DNA of 64,000 bases from an uncultured delta proteobacterium. Lineage in GTDB: Bacteria; Desulfobacterota; Binatia; UBA9968. A model generated the notes under the pieces. That model did no database searches. It was not told the DNA's origin and saw only the letters and a list, made by a program, of their open reading frames with translations. The translations under genes were made by a program, and so were the position numbers. The stretch lies in NCBI GenBank assembly GCA_963755715.1, contig CAVWLW010000057.1, positions 1 through 64,000 on the forward strand. Reading direction: 5' to 3'. Positions 4,082-58,169 of this stretch are shown here, piece after piece (the first letter of the stretch is position 1; each line of letters begins with the position of its first letter).

Positions 4082-5972
4082 TTACCCGGAAGTTACATCA
4101 GCGTGATGGCGATGCCAAAGTTCAAGCATCATTAGGTACCAGATATAGGAACCGTAATAGCCGCTACGCTCCTCATCGTGCAGCCGGAGCAAGCGTTCGA
4201 GCGCCGGGCGCTTGAAATAGCCGCGTTGAACAGCACGAGGTTCCAGCAAAAGTGACCGCGCCAGATCCCTAAACCCAGGGTGATGTCTCAACCACTCGCC
4301 CGTGGGCAGGCCAAACCCATGTTTTTTCTTACGCAAGATTTCGCGGGGCAAGAAATTCTCGAAAGCCTTTTTGAATATGTATCGCTTCGACCATCCTTTG
4401 ACTTTTAAACCAGCGGGGATCCTACCCGCGGTGGTCCCGACGTGAGTATCGAGAAAGGGGTAGCGAACTTGAATGCCGTGAGCTTCCGCCATGCGGTTGA
4501 CCTTGAATAAATCGTTGTCGGCAACGGCTAGCTTCAAATCCATGTACAGAAGACGATTCAGCGGCGCGCAATTAGCCACTCGAGCGTAATGACGCCTCGG
4601 GACATCAAGGGGAAATTCGCGATCGATTGCGTCTCTAAACTCTTCCGATAGCAATTCGTCGGCGTTATCTCGAAAATACAACTGATAGGAAAAAAATCGG
4701 TCGACGGGATTCTGGTTGGCTTTACGAACGTAATTTTTGACTTTCCGCCACGGATAGAAAGCGGGAATGATTTCAGTAGTCCGATCGATCGCCAGTCTTA
4801 TCGGGCGTGGTACCTGCTGATACAGCGTAAAAAATTTTTCGGTAATATAGCGTTCATTCCCGCCATAAAGCTCATCCCCACCATCTCCGGCGAACATGAT
4901 TTTTACACCCGCTTCACGCGCCATCTTCAAGCAGAAGAACGTAGGAATCGCCGAACTATTCCCAAAGGGCTCGTCGTACGCCGCTGCCAGAGTCGGCATC
5001 GCATCGAGCGCTTCTTCGGGTCGAACAAAATATTCGTGGGGATCGCTGTTGAAATGCTGCGCCGCCACTCGGGCATAATGAATCTCATTGTACGCAGCTT
5101 CTTCGAAACCAACAGAGAAGGATTTGACCTGCCGGGACGCAGCTTTGCCAAGTAAGCCAAGAATCGTGCTGCTATCCGTACCGCCGCTTAGAAATGCTCC
5201 CACTTCCGAGACTTGAGGAGAGCCGCCCGCAGGGCAAAACGGACGTAATCTTCCACGGATGTGGACAAACTGGCCGCAACCGCTGCTTGGTTCAGACTGA
5301 AATGTTCGGCATAAGCAACATCCCAACACATTCGTGACAGCGGCGAAGATATTAACTCTTATCAGCACATGACCAGGTTCCAATCGTCGAATATTCTTAT
5401 AAATCGTGTAAGGCGCGGGGATGAATGAGTGGTTGAGATAGAAATACAGACTATTCGGATCGACTACCTTCTTTAATTCCGATGCAGCAGCGAAGCAACT
5501 GATACGAGGCGCGAAACCGAATGAAGAGTCAAGATTCGTATAATAGATTGGGCGGGTGCCAAAATGGTCCGTTGCAAGAATGAGTTTTCTCTCTCGCGCG
5601 TCACACAACGCGATGGCAAACGATCCACGCAGAGAGTCGACGAAGCCAGATCCTTTGCACTTATATAAATCGATAATTTGGGCTGCGTGATTCTCGATGC
5701 AGTCGAGTATCGTTTCTAGGTTCAATGCCCGGGTCTGGAGCCGCAAATCCATCCAGAAACAAATGAACGGAACCGTCGTTGTACGCTTCCTTCCAGCCGT
5801 TCCAACTCCAAGAAAGGATACCGCTTTCCATTTCATCCACGGGTTTTGCTGCAGTCGATTTTTTAACGGCGTTGATCAATCTTCAATCCTCAGAGTTATT
5901 AGCTTTACCGGCTAACCTGTCTATTCCGTCGATTTGAAGCTTCAGTACTTGTTTCAATGAATTAAGATTCAC
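4082..5972 (-). CDS. asparagine synthase-family amidotransferase/ligase (EPS-associated; N-terminus disrupted)
   Basis: DHFGTRPIYY, FLSGGTDSS, AGDGGDELYGG, KVNRMAEAHGIQVRYPFLD, KKHGF; likely GTG start at 5972 after GGGAG. Confidence 0.85.
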
Positions 5973-6018
5973 GAGGCTCCCACCATGCGATACCCGAGCT
6001 AAACTCAATCCTGCACCG

Positions 6019-7074
6019 TTAAGGAATATGCCTGACGATATGCGGCCCCAAAGAGTTTGTAATCGCGAGCGGCAATCCGCGCCAAATACGGATCGCCCAT
6101 TGAAGCTTAGGATTGAGCGGACTCGTATCCGGTAAAGCTTGTCCATTCGGCGCGTAATACCAGTAAGGTAGTGCCATGGGCTCGAAACCCCAGTGCCGCT
6201 TGAAGTTGTAAGGTCCGGTTCCCTCTTTGCTTCTACCAAAGTCAAAAATCTTGCAGCCCTTGGCTCCGGCATAACGCATGAGCTCCCAGTACATGAAATC
6301 ATTGGGCGCTAGGTGAAAATAATCCTTCAAGGCCCCGCCATAGTACGGCAGAACTTGCTCTCGATAAAAAAAAGACAGTACTGCGGCGATTATTTTTTCA
6401 TGGTATTCGACGAGCAATATTCATTGATCGCTGAATGACGAGACGAGATTTTCAAAATACGAATATCCATATACGGGCGTCCCCAGATTGCGCACGCTCT
6501 CTGCGTAAACATCGTAAAATTCCCGCAAACGGCCATTGTCGAAAATCGCTTTGAGACCGTGCTTATCCCCCTGGCGGACCATACGGCGCTGTTTGCGCGG
6601 AATCCGCGCCAGGTTCGCCTCGTCTGTAGAATCGATCTGGCCCTTGAAAGTGACGTAAAGATCTTTGCGCGACCAGCGCGAAGAATCGCCGTCGACGTGC
6701 GGCGCGATCGGCGTTTCAGCATACGGATTGCCGCGGATCTCCAAATAACGGACGTGGCGTTCTTTGGCGAGCTCAGTCGCTTGCTGCAAGAGCATTCGAT
6801 AGGATTCTTCGTCACTGGCAAGCGGCCCGCCATAAACTCCGACCGGCATAGCGACTAAACTACGACCGAAAAGCATGCTTTTGACGAGAAATAAGGGCAG
6901 CAAACCACGAATGCGGCCTGAAGAATCTCGAACCCAAAGATAGACCGGCTCGTAGCCAAAACTCTTTCGGAGGATCTCGCGCCACGCCAGCAAATGAAAA
7001 AACGTACCCGAGGGATGACCGATTACGAATTCATCCCACGAAGGATCGTTATCGCGAAGAAAAGAACATTCCAT
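6019..7074 (-). CDS. FemAB-family XrtA/PEP-CTERM system-associated protein (GNAT-like); in-frame TGA at 6421-6423
   Basis: TFFHLLAW, RKQRRMVRQG, VRNLGTPVY, LPYYGG, NDFMYWELM, FDFGRSK..YNFKRHWGF. Confidence 0.88.
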
Positions 7075-7091
7075 CGATCTAGAGCTTCGAA

Positions 7092-8351
7092 TCAGGCATG
7101 CCGAAGGTCGCCCGCGACTGCTCCAGGGCGCCAGTCCGAAAGATCGACTTGCTGCGCCGGGATCTCATCCTCGATGAGAGTTTGGATAATTCGTTTAGCC
7201 GCGCTACCGTCCCAGAATTGCGGTGGCCGCGGAGCTCCCGTATGCCTGTCAAGACACGGGCAAATTCGTGCATGATTCTTTCCGAGTCCGAGCCGACCAG
7301 TACGTTCGTTCCATGGGTCAAAGTCACCGGTCGTTCGGTATTCTCGCGCAAGGTAATACAGGGAACCCCCAAAATCGTGGTTTCTTCCTGCACGCCGCCA
7401 GAGTCGGTGAGAACGACTTTGGCGCAAGACATTAGATGGAGAAAATCGAGATATCCCAACGGCGGGACGAGTCGAATTCTCACGCGGGAATCCCACGGTT
7501 CCGGACCGTCCAAAAAGTGATCGACGAAGTAATCGCCCAAGTCCGCCTCTTGAATTTGTTTCAAGGTACGCGGGTGTGCGGGAAAAATAAGCGGCATATG
7601 CTGTGAAATATCCAAAAAAGAGTCGAGGATCTTTGAAAATGTTTGGCCGTCATCGACATTTGCTGGACGGTGCAACGTTAAAATCGCATACGGCTTGATC
7701 CGACCTTCCGCGGAAAGTAGCAAATCATTGAGAATCGTCGATTCCTTCGCTTTCGAGCGATAGCCGCAGCAGGGTGTCGATCATGACGTTTCCGACAAAA
7801 TGGATTTTATTGAGAGCGATCCCTTCGCGCTCGAGATTTTGGTTGGCGCTGTCTTCCGTCGTAAAAAGATAGTCGGAAAGCGTATCGGTTACGACCCGGT
7901 TGACTTCCTCCGGCATCGTTCTGTCGAAACTCCGCAAGCCCGCCTCCACGTGGGCCAATTTAGGAATAAAATCTCGTCCATCCTCGCCGACACACCATGT
8001 TTTTTTGGTCACCAGCGCGCAAGCCACTGTCGAATTTACGTCACCGACGACGATCACGATCTGCGGTTTTTGCTCCTCAAGAACCTTCTCGAAGCCTTCC
8101 ATCACCTTCGCAGTCTGCGTCGAGTGAGAACCCGAGCCGACTCCCAAGAACAAATTTGGCTTGGGAAGCTCCAGGTCATTAAAAAATGCGTCCGACATGT
8201 TGGCGTCGTAATGCTGGCCGGTGTGCACCAGGACGTGCTCGATCTGCGGGTTTTTGCCGTTTGCATTGTATTCTTTGATGGCTTCGCAGAGGGCGGCGAC
8301 TTTCATGAAATTCGGTCTGGCGCCGACCACTGAGAGAATCTTAAAGGCCAC
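7092..8351 (-). CDS. wecB: UDP-N-acetylglucosamine 2-epimerase (non-hydrolysing), frameshifted
   Basis: VGARPNFMK, HTGQHYD, VVGDVNST, HVEAGLRS, MPEEVNR, TLHRPANVD, DSGGVQEET, RENTERP, WDGSAAKRI. Confidence 0.92.
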
Positions 8352-20117: not shown

Positions 20118-22232
20118 ATGGACGCTATCTTCAGCTTCAACACGCTGCTCATTGTGAACTTAAGCCTCTTGGGCGCGTTGTTCCTCTATTTGTTGACCAA
20201 GATTAAAGCTCATCCAAGCGTCGGTTATCTGGTTGCTAGCCTCACGCCTTTGATTGGGTTTCAGCTCGGCTGCTATCTTTTTACTAATCGGCCGACCTCG
20301 CCGGAGGGCGCGACGCTGATCGTGCTAGGCGTTGCCCTCATCCCGATTGCAATCACGCCCGTGAGCCATACGCTGGGGCGCGCGGCGCACAACGCTCGAT
20401 CGATTGGCTGGACTGCGTACTATGGCCTGCAGATCGTCTTGCTCATTCTCGTGCTCCGCGGAGTTTTCGCCGGGGGAATCATTGAATGGGTGACGGGAAT
20501 TCTCGACCAGCCGATCATCATCATCGGCGAAACCTGGCGCTATGTTTTCATCAACGTGGTTGGCGCGAGTGTTCTTGCCTTGTTTTGTTTTGATAGAACG
20601 CTTCGCGACGCGAGCAAAGCACAGCGAAAGGAACTCAAGTTCGTTTTGATCGCCTTTCTCGGCTTCGCGGTCTATTTCAGTTACTTATCGATCTCGGTTC
20701 TGTTTTCATCTTATATCTCACAGTCGATGCTGCAGTTAGGATCGCTCGTTGTCTTTATCGGATTGGTTCTGCTCGTGTATGGATTTCGCAAAGTATCCTT
20801 CCTGGGAAGTAAAAATACACGTTTCCAGGCGCCTCGTTTTTGGTTGCCTGTCGGGCACCGCAGCTCTGATCTATCTCATCATTTCAGGAAGCATCCTCGA
20901 CATCTTACGGTTGATGCAACCTCTCGGTTTCAATGTCTTGGTGCCTGCGGCAACTATTACTCTCGGTTCTTTTTTTCTATTATTTTACCTGTCGCCGAAT
21001 TTTCACAGCAGCATCAGAGGCTTCATCACGAGAAATTTCTTTCGTAACAAATATGACTACAGAGACCTTTGGATGAAATTTTCGGACAAATCCAGCGGCT
21101 CACTCAATATCCGAGATCTTTTGCCGAAGGTCGGAGATTTTGTCGCCGAAGGGATGTTCGTCCGACAAGTGGCCTTTTGGCTTCCGGCACCGACATCGGA
21201 AACGTTTCATCTCGCTTATTGTCATGATTCTTTTTATGCCAAGAAGGTCGGCTCTGCATCTTTGCATCTCGATCGCTCGCGCACCAAAGATACGAATGGG
21301 AGCATTTTTCGTGTTCCCGCAGACGATCTCGAAGCGCTCGCAAGTGGCTTCCCGATCGACGGTGTGAGGACTCTTCAAAGAACTGGGGATTCACCGCTTA
21401 GTGCTCGTTGAGAAGGGAAATCAAGTGCTGGCGTTGATCGGCATCGGCGCCCCGCCGCATGAGCAAGAGTCATCAAGCGAGGACAATCAGTTTTTATCCA
21501 GTGTCAGCACTCAGCTGAGTCATTTGATCTTAACGCACAAATTGTCGGAAGAACTCTTGCTGGCGAGAGAATGGGATTCTTTCAACCGGTTCGCCTCGTT
21601 TATCCTGCATGATTTGAAAAATCTCGCGACACTTCAGGGCATGACGCTGGAAAACGCCAAACATCTGCGCCACAATCCGAATTTTATTTCCGATGCTTTT
21701 GAAACTTTCAGCCAGACGACGGAAAAAATGATAAATCTAATCGCCAGCCTGTCGGTCCAAAGAGGGCAATTCTCCTTGAAGCAGCAACCGGTCAACATTC
21801 TTGAGGTGATCGCTCACACCTTCGATGATCTCAAACTCGATCAGAGAAACGGTCGTAAGGATTTCGACTGCTTTTCCGCCGAAAGATCAACTGTCGACGA
21901 TCTCCGGCGACCCCGACCTTCTTCAGAAGGCTTTCACCAATTTGCTCCTCAACGCAATTCAAAGCCTGCCGAAAGGTGAAGGCGCGGTAGAGGTCTCGGT
22001 TTCGCAGCAGAATCGCGGCAAGATCACCGCTTCCATCCGCGACAGCGGATGCGGCATTCCTCCCGAACAACTGGAAAAACTATTTCGCCCCTTTCAAACA
22101 ACCAAGGAAAAGGGCCTGGGAATCGGTCTCTGCCATACGCGCTCCATCATCGAAGTCCACGGTGGACAAATCCGCATCGAAAGTCAGGTCAATTCCGGCA
22201 CCAAAGTAGAAGTTGAATTGCCGACGCTGTAG
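20118..22232 (+). CDS. prsK: PEP-CTERM system histidine kinase PrsK (frameshifted into 4 ORFs)
   Basis: multi-TM N-terminus, hallmark FFRNKYDYRDLW, GAF, FNRFASFILHDLKN H-box, NAIQ, DSGCGI, FQTTK, GLGIGL. Confidence 0.88.
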
Positions 22233-32966: not shown

Positions 32967-35013
32967 ATGATGCGCGCGATCGCCGTACTATTGTTGGTCC
33001 TATCCGTGGGAGCCTTTCCCGCGCCGCTCCTTGCCCAGACTAACGAGCAAAACGATACCTTTGCCAAAGCTTACGCGCTTTATGCCAACGGCAAATCGGC
33101 CGAAGCCCGGGAACTCTTCGAGAGGACTCTCGAGACAAGGTTCCGCCTGATCGATTACAGCTTGTATTATCTCGCCGTGATCCATTTCAGTGGGTCGAAT
33201 TGGGATCAAGCGCGCCAGCTTTTGACCCAACTCAGGCAGAAGTATCCGCAGAGTATTTGGCTTCAGCCGGCAACCCTGCTGCAAGCCAAGATCGATATAG
33301 CGGAAAAAAAATACGCCCAGGCCGACACAACGCTTCGGCAAATCCGCGCGGACAAAACCGCGCCGCGCGATACCACCGATGAAGCGCTTTACCTACAAGC
33401 ACAGATCCAGGAAAACCGGGACGATCCGAGCCGCGCATATGCGCTTTATGATGAGCTGCGCGACAAATCACCCAACTCGCGCTGGACGGCCCCGGCGCGC
33501 AACGGCGCAAGCGCGCTTGCGCGAGGCCTTTCCCGAGCTTTTCGCCTTCCACACGATCGAATCCCTTGCCAACGATGCCGACCGTCTGACCCGCGAGCGG
33601 CAAACCGGCGACGCCGAAGTTCTCTACAAAAAAATTCTGAACAACGTTTCCGATGCCGACTCGCGGGCGCGGTTCTTGGGCAAGCTCGCCAACCTTTACC
33701 TTTCCACCCGCAGCCGAAACGACGCGATTCCGATCCTCGAGCAGATCGCTCGCGATTTTCCCGACAGCAGCGAAGCTCCGAAGGCGCTTTATCAGATCGG
33801 GCAAATCTTCTGGAACCGTCACGAAAACTCCCAGGCGCTCGGCTATTTTAAACAGGTATTAGAAAACTACCCGAGCAGCGACTACGTCGACCGTGCCCAG
33901 TTTGCCGCGGCCGATATTCATGAATTCTTCGGCCGAAAAGAAGAAGCGATTCAGCTCTACAACAGCGTCATCCGGCAGTTTCCTAAAAGCCAAGTGCGCG
34001 ATGATGCCGCCTGGCGGCTCGCGTGGCTCTATTATCAAAACGGCGATCTCGCAACCGCAGCGGCGGCTTTCAAAAGCCTGGAGAGCCAGTCCAAGAATGG
34101 TCCATTCGCCGTGGCGGCGCTGTATTGGCAAGCGCGTGTCACTGAAAAATTGGGCGAATTGGAATCGGCCCGGCAACTTCACCGCCAGATCATCGACGGC
34201 GCGGCCGAGTCTTATTATCAAATGCTGTCGCTGCGCGCGCTGAAGCGACTTGGCGAAACCGTCAACGAAGTCAAATCAAATAAAGCCGCCGTGACGCCGG
34301 AAGCCGATCCGCCGATTGCGCCGGACCTGATGTTTCACTTGACTCGCGCGCGCGTGCTTGCGTCGCTGGCTTTGCGCCAGTTGGCCGTGGCTGAGTTGGA
34401 CGCGGTTGATCGCCAGAGCAAACCGAACGGTGCTTTGCGCGCTTTCCTCATGCGCGAGTATTTTCAGACGGCTGCTTATGGACGGAGCCTTCAGCTTGCC
34501 AACCAGTTGCCGAGCTCGCGCCCGGAGCGCGATCTTTACCGTTACCCGCTCGCTTTTTGGGACCTGATTCAACAGAAAGCGCAGGACCGCGATCTCGATC
34601 CCTATCTGGTGCTCGGACTGATTCGCCAAGAGAGCCTATTCGATACGCGCGCCCGTTCACCCGCCACGGCGCTGGGTTTGATGCAACTGATACCGCCGAC
34701 CGCGGCGCGAATCGCCAAACAGTTGGGCTTGCCCGCGCCGACCCAAGAAACCCTCTTCGAGCCAGAAACAAACCTGACGCTCGGCACGCAGTATCTCAAA
34801 GATCTGCTGCAAAGATATTCGAACAACTGGCACAAAGCGCTCGCTGCCTACAACGCCGGCGAGGCCGCGGTGGATCGATGGGAAAAAGAAATCGTCACCG
34901 ATGATATCGAGGAATTCGTCGAGCGCATCCCCTATGTGGAAACACGGGGCTATGTTAAGCTCGTGCTACGAAATCAGCAGATTTACAAACGGCTCTACGA
35001 CACGCAAAAATGA
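32967..35013 (+). CDS. TPR-containing soluble lytic transglycosylase (frameshift near 33500)
   Basis: signal peptide, many TPRs, SLT motifs IRQES, GLMQL, AYNAG, ETRGYV. Confidence 0.92.
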
Positions 35014-41126: not shown

Positions 41127-41627
41127 ATGCTGCAAGAAGTCGCATTGCCACAGGCCTACCGCGTCACACCCACCGGGCTCTACCTGATCTCGACCGCCCA
41201 CGAAGGCAAGCGCAACGTGCAATTCGCCTTCCGCGCGCTAGGGATTTCCGACGAGCCACCGCTGCTCGTTATCGGCATTCAGGACAAAAATTTCAGCCGG
41301 GAGGTCATCCAGAAAAGCGGCGAGTTTGTTGTCAACGTCTGCTCGGAGAATCAGCTGCATGCGGTGGACAAAAGCCGCACGCTTTCCGGACGCGACGTCG
41401 AAGATAAATTCTTGGCCCTCGGCCTGGAAACCATTCCAGCAAAACACGTACAAGCGCCGCTCGTGGCCGGCTGTCACGCCAATGTAGAATGCCGGGTCGT
41501 GCATGAATTCACCGTGGAGGGATTGTTTCTTTTCGTTGGCGAGGCGCTGGTTGCGCACGTCGACAACCAAGTCGCACCGATCGGCCGATTGGCCGGAAAG
41601 AGTTTTCGCCTTGGCAGCCCGATCTAA
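41127..41627 (+). CDS. flavin reductase-like (DIM6/NTAB) protein
   Basis: SDEPPLL, SGEFVVNV, SGRDVEDKF, APLVAGCHANVECRV, FVGE. Confidence 0.85.
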   Translation: MLQEVALPQAYRVTPTGLYLISTAHEGKRNVQFAFRALGISDEPPLLVIGIQDKNFSREVIQKSGEFVVNVCSENQLHAVDKSRTLSGRDVEDKFLALGLETIPAKHVQAPLVAGCHANVECRVVHEFTVEGLFLFVGEALVAHVDNQVAPIGRLAGKSFRLGSPI

Positions 41628-41651
41628 CCAGCCTCAACGAGGAGGCATACC

Positions 41652-42725
41652 ATGAGGAATCGAATCCGGCTTTGCGCTGCATCTTTTGCTCTCGTCATCG
41701 TCTGCTCCATGGCATTTTCGCGCGCCGAAGCTGCCAGCGCCGAAGAAACTCTGGCGAAAATCAATCGGCTGCCAGCCGCCGAGCGCCAGGCGGCGTTGGT
41801 GAAGGAAGCTAAGAACGAAAAAACCGTAATCTGGTATGCACCGATGAACCGCGAGGATCTGCGCCAGTTCACCGCCGGGTTCGAAACGGAATACCCTTTT
41901 CTCAAGGTCGAAGTCCTGACCGGCGGGCCGCAGAGCCTGCTCAATCGCATTTTGACCGAGCGCCGCGCCGGCAAAGATAACTTTGATATACTCAATATTC
42001 GAAGCTCCGCGCTCTACACGCTCAAGAAAGCTGGCGCCATCGGCCGCTACGACTCGCCGCAGCGGCGCGGCTTGCGCACAGGCTTTTACGACAAAGACGG
42101 TTATTTCAACGGCATCTGGGCGTCGCTCATGGTTTACCTGTTCAACACCAAACAGGTCAGCCGCGCGCAGGCGCCCAAATCCGTCGACGATCTGTTGCAA
42201 CCCAAGTGGAAAGGGAAAATGGGCATGGATCAGGACGCCGACGATTACCTCGCCGCGCTGCTCGATTATTACGGCGACGACAAAGGTAAACAGATCACGA
42301 GGAGCCTCGGAGCGCAGCAGTTGAATATCCGCAAAGGCCGCTCGCTGGTTTCTCAACTGGTCGCCGCCGGCGAATTTCCCGTTCAGATCGACGCGCATCA
42401 TCACGAAGCCGTCGCGCTGCGCCAAGCCGGCGCGCCGGTTGACTACGTATTTCCTGAACCGTTCATCCCGGTAAAATCCGTCTCCGCGTTACCGATGTCA
42501 TCCCGTCCGCCTCATCCCCATGCCGCAGCCCTGCTCGTGGATTTTATGCTCTCGAAGAGAGGTCAGGAACTCGCCTTCAAGCAGCGCCGCTGGCCGGCGT
42601 TCAAAGAACTTGCCACCGGCGGCCCCGACGACGTCGGCAACCGCAACACGCTGGTCCCCGACGCAGACAAATGGGGCAGCCGCTATGAAGAGCTGGTGCA
42701 ACTGACTGCATTACTGGGACGCTAG
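41652..42725 (+). CDS. ABC transporter substrate-binding protein (Fe3+/thiamine-type)
   Basis: signal peptide, VIWYA, DDLLQPKWKGK, AAGEFP, PHPHAAALLVDFMLS. Confidence 0.85.
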   Translation: MRNRIRLCAASFALVIVCSMAFSRAEAASAEETLAKINRLPAAERQAALVKEAKNEKTVIWYAPMNREDLRQFTAGFETEYPFLKVEVLTGGPQSLLNRILTERRAGKDNFDILNIRSSALYTLKKAGAIGRYDSPQRRGLRTGFYDKDGYFNGIWASLMVYLFNTKQVSRAQAPKSVDDLLQPKWKGKMGMDQDADDYLAALLDYYGDDKGKQITRSLGAQQLNIRKGRSLVSQLVAAGEFPVQIDAHHHEAVALRQAGAPVDYVFPEPFIPVKSVSALPMSSRPPHPHAAALLVDFMLSKRGQELAFKQRRWPAFKELATGGPDDVGNRNTLVPDADKWGSRYEELVQLTALLGR

Positions 42726-46928: not shown

Positions 46929-48215
46929 TCAAGCGGATTTGTCATCGAGCTGTAAAGCCGCCAGCGCTTTTTCGATCAACAGGCGTCGGACTTTCTTTTC
47001 CTCCGCCGCCGATACTTTGGCATCGCCCACAACGTGAACAATGCCGTTACCAAGCACCAGTCGATTCGCGCCGACCATCTGGGCGACGGACAGCGCCGAG
47101 GTAATTTGCACGGTGGGGATACCCGCCTTCTCCAACTCGGTTGTGATCGCAGCGCCGCTGCGCGTGCTCGTCCCTCACGTGGAAGTAAGGATGACGGCGT
47201 CGATACCGAGTCTTTTTACCTTGTCGGCCATCTCGCGTCCCATGCGCCGCGTATTCGATAATGGGTTGGCCAAACCGGAAGTTGAAATAAATTCGTCGCA
47301 TAGCGCGCCGATGGCGCCCTCACTTTCAAGCTCGCGCAGGACATCCAACGGCACGAGGCGGTCGGGATCTTGCCGGACGAACTGCGGATCGTAGCCGCCG
47401 TGTGAAATCTCATAGTCTTCGCTCTTCAAGTCGTCGCAATCTTTAATGCTATACGAACCCCAGCGTGTTGCCGCCGAGCCTTGGATCTTGTCGGGATTGC
47501 CCTTCGGTACCAAGCCGCCGTCGGTAATCAACATCACCTTCGCGTTCCGCAAGTCTTTGATGCCCGCAGGCATGGGCACCGGTTGAAACGTCGCCGGCGC
47601 CATTTCCGTCTCGAACGGCTCGCCTCGGGTTTTCGCGAGCACCATTTCGACCAGCCGCTCAGCAGCGCTCTTTTCAACGAACTGATCGCGGATCAGACCG
47701 CGCGCAATATAACCCTCCTCGGCGGGAAAACCGATTGGCTCGTGGCGCATCAATTTGACCGCGAGATGCGCCATCTTCTCCAACACGTCGCGCATCCGCG
47801 CCGCGCTGTCGCCGCTGTCGATGATGTACAGCGGTTCGCGATAAAGATCCGCGCCGGGATTTTCCCGCGCCATACCGGTCACCACCGGGATGCCGATTTG
47901 CGATTGTACCGCCGAACCAAGCGCACCCGCGGCCACGCCATATCGCCCGGCCAAAAAACAGGGTCCGGCGACGAACAAATCGGCCTTGCACGCGCGAATT
48001 TTTTCCAACGCCGCAGCAATCAACGACTCTTGATTCTCGACCGCGTAGTTGTCGCCGCAGATAAGGGTCATCACCAGTCGGGCTTCGGCCCCAAGCAACT
48101 GCTCCAGAAGCTTTCCGGGACCTATCGCACCGTCGCGCGTCTCGAGCGGAGTCCCCGCTTTCTCTTCCCCGCCAAGTCCGCCGAAGAACTGATTTAGATA
48201 ATGAATGACGCGCAT
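46929..48215 (-). CDS. grdB: glycine/betaine/sarcosine reductase selenoprotein B-like (Sec at TGA 47175-47177)
   Basis: HYLNQFFGG.GGEEKA, ICGDNY, AGPCFLAGRYG, GGLVPKGNPD, HGGYD, DPDRLVPLD; ORF 47175..48215 ends ILTST-TGA and continues in frame as GTSTRSGAA..ELEKAGIP (ORF 46929..47135). Confidence 0.9.
47148..47162 (-). other. bacterial SECIS-like hairpin of grdB
   Basis: CGCAGC-GGC-GCTGCG starting 13 nt after the UGA, with G as the first loop base. Confidence 0.7.
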
Positions 48216-48308: not shown

Positions 48309-49583
48309 TCAATACACCATCGATCTTAGCCGCGACGCGCCCTGTTGGTTCGCAACGCCGACCACGTTCAGCGATTCAATTTCGAACGGTCCGGCAAGCA
48401 ATTCGGCCAGGCCGCTGTTCGCCGCGATCACGCGCTCGACCGGGGGCAGAGTCCAGTTCGTGCTATTGCCGCCAACGCAAACAATCGCGTTCACCTCAGG
48501 AAAATTGAACAACAGCGCCGACTCGACGCGATGATCGCGCGCCAGATCGGTAACCTGCACGGCGGTCTTGATGCCGTCGCATTCCAATAGCCGCGCTGTT
48601 TCGGATAAATCGGTGTGTGGCACTCCGCCGCCGAATTTTGTCAGCACTGCAGCATCGGCTCTGAGCGCCCATTTGACCAGATTGGCGCTAAAGCGCGTGT
48701 TGCGCTCTCGGTCGAAGTTATTAGCCGAGGCGATGGTCGCGACCGTGCCGACAAAATTTATTTCATCCGCTCGATGGCGCCGATAGAGTTCCAGAATCAC
48801 CGGATGGTTTTGATAAAAATAAGTTTCCGCGCCGCCGAGCGAGGTGTGATACGAGGTTACGACTGCGCCATCGAGCCATTCATTCGGATGCAGCAGAGTT
48901 GGCAGCAAGCCGTCGGTGTCCGCGCCGTAAATAATCTGTTCATCGGCTTCCGGCTTTCTCTGGCGTGAAAAAATTTGCCCGATATAAGCGATTCGCGGCA
49001 ACCCGCTTCTGTCGCCTGGGGCGGCAAGCTCGAAGGTCTCCGCGCGCTCGGGTGACTTGTCGAAAGCCGCCCGCGCCAAATGCACGGCGACTTTCAATTG
49101 CGCGGAGCGATAAGCTTTGTGGCGGGAATGGATCGGCAAATCGCCGCGCGTATGCGGGATGACGATCAAATGATGCAAAGCCGCGTAACGCGAGCCCGCC
49201 GCCGCGGCGCCGCTCATCTCCAAAACATAACCGGTGGCGCCACGGGAATCGCCGGGCGATTCTTCGCGCAATGCGGTGACCGCTGCACCCGACAAGACAT
49301 GGGTCGTGCCATTGCCGGCCGTCTGCGGCGGACCGATAATACCTGGCCAATCGGGACTTCCGCCCGGCGCCTTAGCTCTCGGCTCGACGATATCGAAGAT
49401 CGGTCCCGCGCGGCAACTCTCGCCGGGGCGCGCGATCTGAAAGTCGACGGCTTCGATCGCGCCATCTTCGAGGATCAATCGGCTGAGCTCCGCTGCGTCG
49501 ACAACTAGCCTCTTCCCTTCGAGATCGAGTCTTTTTCCAAAACAGATTTCCGTGATCGGGTGGATGGCAAGTGTCAGCGGCAT
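48309..49583 (-). CDS. grdE: glycine/sarcosine/betaine reductase component B proprotein-like (GrdE/GrdI family)
   Basis: IARPGE..DIVEPRAK, GTTHVLSGAAV, PTLLHPNEWLDGAV, TYFYQNHPVI.ELY, ADAAVLTKFGGG, AIVCVG; directly upstream of grdB. Confidence 0.82.
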   Translation of the reverse strand: MPLTLAIHPITEICFGKRLDLEGKRLVVDAAELSRLILEDGAIEAVDFQIARPGESCRAGPIFDIVEPRAKAPGGSPDWPGIIGPPQTAGNGTTHVLSGAAVTALREESPGDSRGATGYVLEMSGAAAAGSRYAALHHLIVIPHTRGDLPIHSRHKAYRSAQLKVAVHLARAAFDKSPERAETFELAAPGDRSGLPRIAYIGQIFSRQRKPEADEQIIYGADTDGLLPTLLHPNEWLDGAVVTSYHTSLGGAETYFYQNHPVILELYRRHRADEINFVGTVATIASANNFDRERNTRFSANLVKWALRADAAVLTKFGGGVPHTDLSETARLLECDGIKTAVQVTDLARDHRVESALLFNFPEVNAIVCVGGNSTNWTLPPVERVIAANSGLAELLAGPFEIESLNVVGVANQQGASRLRSMVY

Positions 49584-49611
49584 GAAAGAACCCTGCAAGA
49601 AATTTGATATG

Positions 49612-56497: not shown

Positions 56498-58123
56498 TCA
56501 TTCCAACCGTTCCTGCATCACCGCCACAGTCTGCATATGTGTTCCGGTGCGTCCCGGCAGATACGCCGATTTGGCGCCCGCCCCACCGGCGACGACGAGC
56601 CAAATATCCTCCGGTCGGTCCACGGCGCCAATTTCACGAGCTGCGCCATTTTTTTGAAACCAGCGCGGCCGCCGCTTGGACAACAGTTCGAGATTTTCAT
56701 CTGAAATCTTTTCATGAGGCAGTCGCGCCATAGCGAACAATTCCTGGCGAATGGCATCTTTCGAGTATCCGCCGGCAGCGAAGATCGCCGCGTGCTCCGG
56801 GCAAATTACGAATAGAACCTCCGTCGTGGTCACGCCGCTCGCCAAACCGCCGGTCATCGTCAGCGCGAAGGTCTTGAGCAGTCCTTTGGCCGTCTGGCTC
56901 GCCATATCGACGGCGCTATACACGCCGCTGCAACCCGTGACGCTGACTGTGTCCACGCCCTTACCGACGCTGCGTTCGACATGCAGCGGCTCCCACGGAC
57001 TCGCCTCTTCGTTCTCACCGAAGCAAAAGGTGTACTTGGCCGGCTGCCCGACCGTCGACTTGTCGAATTGCCCGGGAGTCGCCCCGCCGATATTGGCCAT
57101 AATCAATCGCAGCGCCCTGCCGATGGTCGCATTGGCGCGCCATCCCTGGCCGAGCACATTCGCCCCCGAATTGATTTTCAAGCGGTGCCGGCACGGCCCA
57201 TTGACGATAATCATCGGTGCGACATTGCCGGTGGTGGTTTGCACGCCGTCGAGATTGAATCCCGGCAGCAGCACGCCTTTTGTCGCGGCGACAACCAGCG
57301 GAAAATATTCCGGCAAACAGCCGGCCATCACCGCGTTAGCAGCAAGCTTTTCGATCACCGCCCTGCCGTTTAATGGTGGCATCGCGCCGAGGGAAAAATG
57401 CTTATCCAATCCGCTCGCCGCGACCATTATTTCAACCGCCGCCCCCGTCGGCGGCAGAACCGGCAGGCCGTCGCTCCAGCCGCGCTCGATCATCTCGTTG
57501 AATAATTCAGCGGGCTCGCTTGAAACCATAATGAGTGAATCGGAATCATCGCCGTTCGTCCTGTTTATCGCCGTCGCGCCGGCAGCAAATTTACTATTGC
57601 GCAGCAACTGCTCCGCAATCGCGTCAACCGTCGACTCCGCCAACGAGCGCAATCGGTCGAGAGCAATCGATCCCACCGGGTGCGGCACCTTCACCAAAGG
57701 CAAATCGGCCATGCCGCGATTTTGCGACTCGCTCTGAGCCAGGGAAAAGAACTCGTCGGTGACCACCGTGGCGGTCGGAATCGCCGCGCTTTCGAGTTTG
57801 ACGGAGTCGTGGACACTCCACGACGTGCACGAGCCTCAATCGGCAAAGGCGTTGATCACGACATCACAACGCGCAATCAGCTCGGGCAAACAGTCCGCCT
57901 CGGTCCGGCTCATTTTGCACAGCGCCACGAGCTCGATGTCGCCGGCGCGCCGCTTGAGCAGGTCACCGACAAATTGCAGAAACTTGTCGGCATTGGGCTT
58001 GTTGTTGTCGAGCAGACCGACACGCAATCCGTGCAGAGAATCGTGCTTGCGCCGAGCCAGACCGGTTTGCTTGCTCTCGCCGACTCCTACCGGATTGACG
58101 ATTTCGATCGATGTCTCGCTCAT
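56498..58123 (-). CDS. UGSC-motif selenoprotein fused to a conserved uncharacterised domain (Sec at TGA 57836-57838; 541 aa)
   Basis: ORF 57836..58123 (GLLDNNKPNAD..VVINAFAD) ends in TGA, continues in frame as GSCTSWSVHD..IPT..VTDEF and runs into ORF 56498..57766 (HPVG, GWSDGLPVLPPT, NAVMAGC.PEY, RANATIGRALRL, ENEEASPW). Confidence 0.88.
57806..57824 (-). other. bacterial SECIS-like hairpin of the UGSC gene
   Basis: GTCGTGGA-GTG-TCCACGAC, a perfect 8-bp stem starting after an 11-nt spacer from the UGA, with G as the first loop base. Confidence 0.8.
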
Positions 58124-58169
58124 AGAATGCCTCCGATTAGCCGCGCCGAAATTACGCGCCCGTGGGGAT

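Follow-up and report, generated by a model that had tools for sequence, protein, structure and literature searches.

A UGSC selenoprotein fused to a large conserved domain in an uncultured Binatia bacterium, and its probable relation to the Sec module of selenoprotein B

Are two neighbouring open reading frames (ORFs) on the minus strand of a bacterial contig two genes, or one selenoprotein gene split by the gene caller, and what could the joined protein do? The question is raised by the first 64,000 nucleotides (hereafter the window) of contig CAVWLW010000057.1, from an uncultured delta proteobacterium (GTDB lineage Bacteria; Desulfobacterota; Binatia; UBA9968; assembly GCA_963755715.1). Translation table 11 gives here the ORFs 57836..58123 (95 aa) and 56498..57766 (422 aa, GTG start). 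An earlier note, made from the letters of the window, had joined them through one in-frame TGA, read as selenocysteine (Sec), into a hidden fusion of a UGSC domain with a large domain of unknown function. Our best explanation, to which we assign a probability of about 0.55 taken as a whole, is that the gene encodes a UGSC fusion selenoprotein in which a Sec module like that of selenoprotein B is combined with a substrate-domain partner. The coordinates are collected in Table 1.

The minus-strand frame of 541 codons contains a single in-frame TGA (57838-57836), as the earlier note had it. Read through, the junction is NAFAD-U-GSC-TSWSVHD, which contains the AD-U-GSC motif of that note and the redox pair Sec96-x-x-Cys99. 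The C-terminal motifs GWSDGLPVLPPT, NAVMAGC, RANATIGRALRL and ENEE..SPW are all present and fall on conserved alignment columns. With the TGA read through, the protein matches the UGSC family PF24696 at 155.1 bits (cut-off 25, E 2.6e-45, profile positions 1-171 of 172) and NF041046 at 132.9 bits (cut-off 125), and only in this form do both matches pass their cut-offs.

The simplest alternative is that the TGA is a genuine stop, or that the locus is a pseudogene or carries a sequencing error, in which case the products would be a peptide of 95 aa and, from a start of its own, a protein of ~420 aa. This would agree with the two ORFs of table 11, with the GTG at 57766 as a possible second start, and with the database entries for homologues, which are mostly such post-TGA ORFs. 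However, neither ORF matches more than half of the UGSC profile (positions 1-92 for one and 117-171 for the other), and the TGA is conserved. Species-representative genomes yielded at least 601 related loci on scanning; among the best 78 of these, 69 have a UGSC domain on the same strand and 9 have no UGSC nearby, and the aligned codon in the 69 is TGA in 68 and TGC in one (L089). A PF24696 search of 121 genomes of the same phylum gave matches in 14, the own genome included, and 39 of the 41 matches contain one TGA, the other two none. Cys homologues at the aligned column, which the earlier note had suggested looking for, are found not only in the TGC locus: among the full-length database fusions, 12 have Cys at the Sec column and 3 have Ile or Ser. 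The Cys at position Sec+3 (Cys99) is present in all 13 N-terminal fusions examined.

The Sec machinery is also complete. The genome (7.4 Mb in 76 contigs, 93.6% complete) encodes selA (617 bits), selB (416 bits), selD and a tRNA-Sec (76.7 bits, gathering score 47), all of which pass their cut-offs; the three sel genes form a cluster on contig C3, and the tRNA-Sec lies on contig C69. The selD gene (C3:71086-72013, minus strand) is matched in two overlapping pieces, the N-terminal one of which contains one TGA, and SelD itself is probably a selenoprotein in this genome. Together with the covarying hairpin described below, these findings leave the stop-codon alternative with hardly any probability. 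That the two ORFs form one real Sec-containing fusion protein is, judged from the sequences, almost certain; on the same grounds, UGA96 is decoded by the SelA, SelB, SelD and tRNA-Sec of this genome, directed by the hairpin at 57824-57806.

The selenocysteine insertion sequence (SECIS) of the gene would be this hairpin, GUCGUGGA-GUG-UCCACGAC, whose first base lies 11 nt after the UGA and which folds alone at -11.1 kcal/mol. The criteria for bacterial SECIS elements were taken from the Fig. 2 legend of PMC13188914, which, in the part available of that article, asks for an apical loop of 3-9 nt, an upper stem of 4-16 bp, a G in loop positions 1-2, 16-37 nt between UGA and apical loop, and a minimum free energy (MFE) of -7.5 kcal/mol or lower. 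The hairpin lies within every one of these ranges, with a loop of 3 nt starting with GU, a perfect stem of 8 bp, a spacing of 19 nt from UGA to apical loop and the MFE given above. Perfect 8-bp hairpins with loops of 3-9 nt occur 26 times in 128,000 nt (both strands of the window), and in 11 of the 26 one of the two leading loop bases is a G; the chance expectation of such a hairpin at the permitted spacing is ~0.002 per TGA.

The conservation of the hairpin was assessed on 30 fetched loci, which gave 28 Sec sites: L052 has no TGA, and L046 failed a filter asking for at least 70 open codons 5' of the TGA, at least 60 after it and [GSAN][SATN][CST] following. The 28 sites were aligned without gaps, and pairs were counted for the hairpin columns. 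Overall, 83.9% of the cells were paired against 65.7% in shuffles, and the covariation score was 0.448 against 0.166, with none of 500 shuffles as high in either measure. When the partner column was slid by 1-3 positions, 20-46% of the cells were paired. The unpaired cells come mostly from seven divergent rows that fold in another register. Both-sided switches at third codon positions were found at columns 21/39 (GC 13, AU 5), 24/36 (GC 20, AU 4) and 27/33 (GC 14, CG 10). At columns 27/33 a change from Trp to Cys (UGG to UGC) is paired with a synonymous Val change (GUC to GUG), a double change that, read at the codon level, is not explained by selection on the protein. Thus, the claim of a well-placed SECIS-like hairpin stands, on both the published criteria and the covariation over the 28 loci.

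The protein cannot be called hidden, as the earlier note did, since curated Pfam and NCBIfam models exist and a UGSC/Unknown_1 fusion was published in 2008. In the parts available of Zhang and Gladyshev 2008 (PMC2398784), UGSC is a major selenoprotein family of the Global Ocean Sampling (GOS) data, with 255 Sec and 21 Cys homologues (Table 2); its fold is called "likely" Trx-like, and a fusion with a conserved domain named "Unknown_1" is reported (Fig. S1A). UGSC reads of Dataset S1 carry GWTDGLPIVPPT, VNGVMAGCRPEY and AENE, the counterparts of GWSDGLPVLPPT, NAVMAGC and GENEE; by these sequences and by the accessible text, the C-terminal domain (C-domain) of our protein is Unknown_1. A 2026 review (PMC13188914) lists UGSC under NF041046 and states, in the part consulted, that functions "remain largely uncharacterized"; in the databases, the name "UGSC family (seleno)protein, partial" has already been given to one relative. 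The fusion architecture is already known and little studied, and the gene is mis-split by standard calling.

The present protein resembles the curated UGSC family (PF24696, NF041046) in its profile scores above both cut-offs, in the U-G-S-C and TSWSVHD motifs, in the SECIS directly downstream and in the predominance of Sec over Cys. It differs in that the curated models cover only the N-domain of ~170 residues, to which the fusion adds a domain of 345 residues. It also shares with the GOS fusion the order of an N-terminal UGSC domain followed by the conserved unknown domain, whereas the GOS reads belong to a "GMxCUGSCTPAV" subtype, nearer to the second (USTC) fusion of the own genome than to the gene described here.

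What kind of domain carries the Sec residue? A full-length AlphaFold2 (AF2) model based on a 150-row alignment has a mean predicted local distance difference test (pLDDT) of 93.5 and a predicted template modelling score (pTM) of 0.93, the latter reached despite a disordered linker and counted for domain linkage. Low confidence is confined to the linker at ~181-195 (mean pLDDT 79, 51 and 78 for the blocks 171-180, 181-190 and 191-200). In the N-domain, DSSP assigns an N-terminal strand followed by five alternating strand-helix units: strand 34-39 and helix 45-60, 64-69 and 79-85, 88-94 and 97-112, 117-122 and 123-135, 143-146 and 155-174. The thioredoxin fold, that is, the order beta-alpha-beta-alpha-beta-beta-alpha with a mixed sheet and the UxxC at the N-terminus of helix 1, is not what the predicted model displays. 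Sec96, between strand 88-94 and helix 97-112, does lie at a helix N-terminus, but after the third core strand and not before helix 1 as in thioredoxin. The VIA matches of the N-domain are CheY receivers, flavodoxin-like domains and related three-layer alpha/beta proteins (Z 9-10.7, rmsd 2.5-3.2 A, 112-135 residues). The UGSC domain thus models as a CheY/flavodoxin-like alpha/beta fold, an assignment that is new here. The predicted model supports neither the thioredoxin-like label of the earlier note nor the "likely Trx-like" fold found in the accessible part of PMC2398784.

The UGSC domain also resembles the Sec-bearing region of the selenoprotein B family (GrdB/GrdF/GrdH/PrdB). BLASTP aligned the fusion protein with a GrdB-like protein encoded in the same window over 67 residues (33% identity, E 0.003), Sec on Sec. 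Sub-threshold NCBIfam matches are found from both sides: UGSC residues 83-157 match gly_red_sel_B positions 334-402 (E 0.035), and GrdB residues 335-374 match UGSC_fam positions 56-96 (E 0.0045). Aligned with hhalign, 28 UGSC segments and nine GrdB-family segments (from 12 loci examined) gave a probability of 97.4% (E 1.2e-11, score 72.3) over 72 columns, again Sec on Sec, and the PHP-x-G motif was aligned as well. None of 30 column-shuffled controls exceeded a score of 16.5, and the reversed alignment reached 14.6. With the full-length GrdB alignment as target, the match fell on columns 334-407 of 439 (96.8%).

Over the 72 columns, the two families have in common a strand, the U-x-x-C, a helix, the motif E-x-x-G-[IV]-P-[TA] and the PHP-x-G loop. 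According to the part available of PMC13188914, the GrdB motif is U-x-x-C-x-x-C, which many UGSC proteins also have (e.g. UGSCTSCS). The Sec module is paired in both families with a separate part, which in the UGSC fusion too would bind the substrate. Taken together, these sequence comparisons make it very probable that the UGSC domain is homologous to the Sec module of selenoprotein B. In the literature as far as it was accessible, UGSC and GrdB are listed separately, and a statement of their homology was not found.

The window GrdB-like protein used above is encoded at 46929-48215 (minus strand) and belongs to the GrdB/GrdF-like selenoprotein B genes (TIGR01918, 465 bits). Its in-frame TGA (47177-47175, codon 347) lies in the motif ST-U-GTSTRS, in which Ser replaces both Cys of the GrdB motif U-x-x-C-x-x-C; ~12 nt downstream stands a hairpin of 6 bp with the loop GGC. 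The gene directly upstream (48309-49598, minus strand) is GrdG/GrdE-like (PF09338). The whole genome contains six matches to the selenoprotein B family, and a PDB sequence search with the window GrdB-like protein returned no match at E<=1 to 10; the PDB copy searched contains no structure of GrdB or PrdB.

The second half of the fusion, residues ~196-541, has no Pfam or NCBIfam match. A Pfam scan of 70 C-domain members at E<=1 found 13 families, each in one member and none recurrent. Nevertheless the domain is abundant: the family comprises 4670 representative clusters (50% identity) at E<=0.001 and 1194 at E<=1e-30, and 7872 of 8000 scored candidates of a 90%-identity database lie at E<=0.001. 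The large conserved partner domain of unknown function of the earlier note is, then, a very large family without a Pfam model. Among its best 149 representatives, 76 are stand-alone (about 340-375 aa), 42 have an N-terminal stub of 60-159 aa, as expected of ORFs called after the TGA, 22 have an N-terminal extension of at least 160 aa and nine a C-terminal extension of at least 70 aa.

Fusion partners were identified by scanning 17 of the 149 against Pfam. UGSC stands N-terminal to the C-domain in P0124 and, in the reverse order, at the C-terminus in P0143, P0197, P0207 and P0216, which are cut at profile position 92, that of Sec; in the reverse-order fusions, the Sec lies ~80 residues from the end. 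Four proteins (P0244, P0267, P0200 and P0253) have an AhpC/TSA-type domain N-terminal to the C-domain, and P0250 has a Pyr_redox_2 flavoprotein C-terminal to it. Fusion in both orders, together with adjacent separate genes in the own genome (see below), argues strongly for a joint action of the two modules, and on this point the earlier note proved right.

The same architectures limit a further claim of that note, namely that Sec insertion gates translation of the whole downstream domain. If Sec insertion failed at codon 96 of 541, a 95-residue fragment without C-domain would result. Gating in this sense follows trivially from the Sec position, as in any selenoprotein with an early Sec; since reverse-order fusions and split pairs exist, it does not amount to a design that is conserved. 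Inspection of the linker, to which no further test was added, gave no indication of a ribosome-binding site serving an internal start.

The own genome has, besides the gene described here, three more UGSC genes, so that there are four in all, with one TGA apiece; the other three are located at C59:34705-35214, C59:16982-17488 and C64:149739-150218 (loci L025-L027, L054-L056). One is a second fusion, with the motif GH-U-STC, a different hairpin and a Pyr_redox_2 gene directly downstream. Another, on contig C59, is a stand-alone UGSC gene directly followed by a separate C-domain gene of 360 aa, and the fourth UGSC gene is stand-alone and followed by a gene for a thiamine pyrophosphate (TPP) enzyme. 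A further genome of the phylum (G034) has 14 UGSC-fusion paralogues with open frames of 558-607 aa, two of which have neither Sec nor Cys at the site. The locus L061 (G036:C27, ~5078-7636, minus strand) gives on TGA read-through a frame of 912 aa with the C-domain first and UGSC after it; its 413 aa after the Sec are poorly alignable to the C-domain.

Structure prediction, which the earlier note had proposed for the C-domain, was successful as regards the model and not as regards relatives. Modelled alone, the domain reaches an AF2 pLDDT of 94.6. PDB sequence searches with the full protein and with a C-domain profile of 70 sequences found no match at E<=1 to 10. The best Foldseek match is 7xky_A, a class I fumarate hydratase alpha subunit (E 9.8e-4, TM 0.25-0.29), and the best VIA match among 48,161 chains has Z 7.0 over 81 residues, with none reaching 8. 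The predicted C-domain therefore has no convincing solved structural relative, which is not proof of a new fold. In the ESM Atlas, the stand-alone C-domain paralogue of the own genome falls into clusters automatically named "Thioredoxin family protein" that have no common Pfam domain; the name probably stems from fused forms and is a lead only.

How could the two modules work? Our proposal takes the UGSC domain to be the C-terminal, Sec-bearing module of selenoprotein B in free-standing form. The C-domain would be its substrate-binding or catalytic partner, to which the conserved residues D218, T226, T298, N331, R336, E370 and W377 may contribute. Sec96 would attack or reduce a small-molecule substrate held by the C-domain, Cys99 would resolve the intermediate to a selenenyl-sulfide, and a thioredoxin or thioredoxin-reductase-type system would re-reduce it. 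Residue conservation was assessed in the 13 N-terminal fusions of the phylum sample: D218, T226, E370 and W377 are each kept in 12 of the 13 and T298, N331 and R336 each in 11. The AhpC/TSA and Pyr_redox_2 fusions, as well as the Pyr_redox_2 gene after the second fusion of the own genome, fit this redox picture. By analogy with selenoprotein B, a two-module substrate reductase is a tentative assignment, which we rate somewhat below even odds.

The same fusions could also be read differently, with the UGSC domain as a dedicated thioredoxin that reduces a disulfide between Cys269 and Cys367 (or a sulfenate), and the C-domain as the true thiol-dependent enzyme. These two Cys, in the motifs NAVMAGC and FCFGENE, are conserved in at least 90% of the sequences in alignments of 150 and 70 members, the C-domain is fused elsewhere to AhpC/TSA-type thioredoxin-fold domains and to a thioredoxin-reductase-like flavoprotein, and conserved Cys in fused domains are noted in the accessible part of Zhang and Gladyshev 2008 (PMC2398784). 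Yet among the 13 N-terminal fusions Cys269 and Cys367 are each kept in seven, against 13 of 13 for Sec and Cys99, and the second fusion of the own genome has Ala and Thr at the two columns. Since that fusion lacks both Cys, the U-x-x-C pair has a role independent of them, and we consider the relay unlikely.

Still less probable, in our judgement, is that Sec96 and Cys99, with or without Cys269 and Cys367, ligate a metal or Fe-S cluster or carry a persulfide or selenide, the C-domain being a hydro-lyase-like or transfer enzyme. The main subfamily has four Cys/Sec residues to offer, and the extended structural resemblances of the C-domain, all of them weak, point to Fe-S hydro-lyases: besides its Foldseek match, 7xky_A has a VIA Z of 4.8 over 187 residues, 6mso_A (Leishmania major class I fumarate hydratase) has Z 4.2 over 192 residues, and CyuA has Z 4.2. 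These values, however, lie within the range that the tool itself describes as common for unrelated folds; moreover, neither C-domain Cys is conserved across subfamilies, and it is with a redox-active module, that of selenoprotein B, that the UGSC module shares its homology.

Several results weigh against the reading of the protein as a selenoprotein-B-like Sec module with a substrate domain. At the level of Sec insertion, the 81 nt surrounding the site, taken as a whole, do not exceed shuffles in stability (z -0.77; 44 of 200 shuffles equally or more stable), so the SECIS signal resides in the local hairpin and its conservation and not in bulk stability. Neither Sec nor Cys is found at the site in two of the 41 phylum-sample matches and in P0147, P0171 and P0222, which means that not every family member can use the residue at this position. 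As to the relation with selenoprotein B, a single GrdB template gave an hhalign probability of 15% only, TIGR01917 scores 13 bits (cut-off 602) and over profile positions 334-402 only, and the segments compared by hhalign had been trimmed on both sides to the surroundings of the Sec, so that one aligned column was fixed beforehand. The fusion has no match to PF07355 and is not a full-length member of the selenoprotein B family. The C-domain shows no similarity by hhalign to the GrdB N-terminal domain (score 18.7) or to the GrdE-like protein (15.6). No pyruvoyl-type (GrdE/PrdA) partner adjoins the fusion gene; the GrdE-like gene of the window sits ~9 kb off, beside its own GrdB-like gene. The fusion therefore differs from selenoprotein B in having neither the GRDB N-terminal domain nor a GrdE/PrdA-type partner and in its unrelated C-domain. 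Its carriers also include soil and water lineages, which we take to be aerobic, in place of amino-acid-fermenting anaerobes.

In a survey of 20 loci (207 ORFs, called by a crude longest-ORF rule), the gene neighbourhoods were heterogeneous and had no single conserved partner, and a Pyr_redox_2 gene was directly adjacent in only one of the 20, which counts against the proposed mechanism. Recurrent neighbours are organic-acid transporters (TTT, TRAP and MFS), NMT1-type binding proteins, Amidohydro_2 proteins, TPP enzymes, CoA ligases and transferases, and MmgE/PrpD. Such catabolic-cluster neighbourhoods and the 14 paralogues in one genome suggest diversified substrates. The survey of fusions and neighbourhoods proposed in the earlier note thus yielded fusions in both orders and no single conserved neighbour.

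Table 1. Coordinates in the window of the selenoprotein gene and its parts
Feature	Position	Strand	Remark
Whole selenoprotein gene	56498..58123	minus	541 codons + stop; read 58123 -> 56498
ATG start codon	58121..58123	minus	Sequence inspection
Shine-Dalgarno-like GGAGG	58130..58134	minus	6 nt 5' of the ATG at 58123; sequence inspection
Sec codon UGA, codon 96, first residue of U-G-S-C	57836..57838	minus	
SECIS hairpin, 8-bp stem + GUG loop	57806..57824	minus	
UGSC domain, residues 7-174	57602..58105	minus	PF24696 + NF041046 match
Linker, low confidence, ~residues 175-195	57539..57601	minus	AF2 pLDDT dip
C-terminal conserved domain ("Unknown_1" type), residues 196-541	56501..57538	minus	
True stop codon TGA	56498..56500	minus	Homologues terminate at the same place

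In the window, the gene is flanked upstream by nadA and a GAF histidine kinase gene and downstream by a short SsuA-like ORF. Other frames of the window are also interrupted by an in-frame TGA. The one at 6022-7164 (minus strand) encodes a FemAB/GNAT-like protein (PF13480, E 6.7e-17, match 190-323) with TGA 6423-6421 at residue 248. The sequence after this TGA forms no stable hairpin (its -5.2 kcal/mol is weaker than in shuffles), and the TGA looks like a nonsense mutation, a sequencing error or a boundary between two genes and not like a Sec codon. The TGA-joined stretches 41241-42488 (minus), 33862-34635 (minus) and 21077-21976 (plus) have no Pfam match when read through, and for this reason they have probably arisen by chance or lie opposite to real genes.

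UGSC proteins are, in the part available of PMC2398784, among the most abundant predicted selenoproteins of aquatic metagenomes (255 in GOS). In the larger database, most of the top matches are ORFs of 400-436 aa labelled "hypothetical protein", with their start inside the UGSC domain; these, and the 42 apparent post-TGA fragments among the 149 best representatives, indicate that a large share of the public entries of the family is truncated. The fusion also occurs in cultured isolates (Xenophilus azovorans DSM 13620, Vineibacter terrae CC-CFT640 and Robertmurraya sp. 2P01SA), so that genetics and biochemistry are feasible.

New here are the CheY/flavodoxin-like fold modelled for the UGSC domain, the homology of this domain to the selenoprotein B Sec module, and the observation of how large and how modular the family of the Pfam-less domain is. 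The link to selenoprotein B leads to a chemical hypothesis, with Sec as the nucleophile, a resolving Cys and a separate substrate-binding domain, and the repeated association with a single domain that has no Pfam model speaks for it as well. In its widest form, which is speculative and which we hold to be unlikely as a whole, UGSC and Unknown_1 would represent a widespread, unrecognised group of selenoprotein-B-like reductases beyond the classical Stickland fermenters. In these, a portable Sec/Cys module, homologous to the active-site module of GrdB/PrdB, would be fused in either order or adjacent to a substrate-binding domain of new fold. The two together would reduce, or cleave reductively, a variety of small organic acids or amines with electrons from thioredoxin-type systems, and their substrate specificity would be diversified among paralogues.

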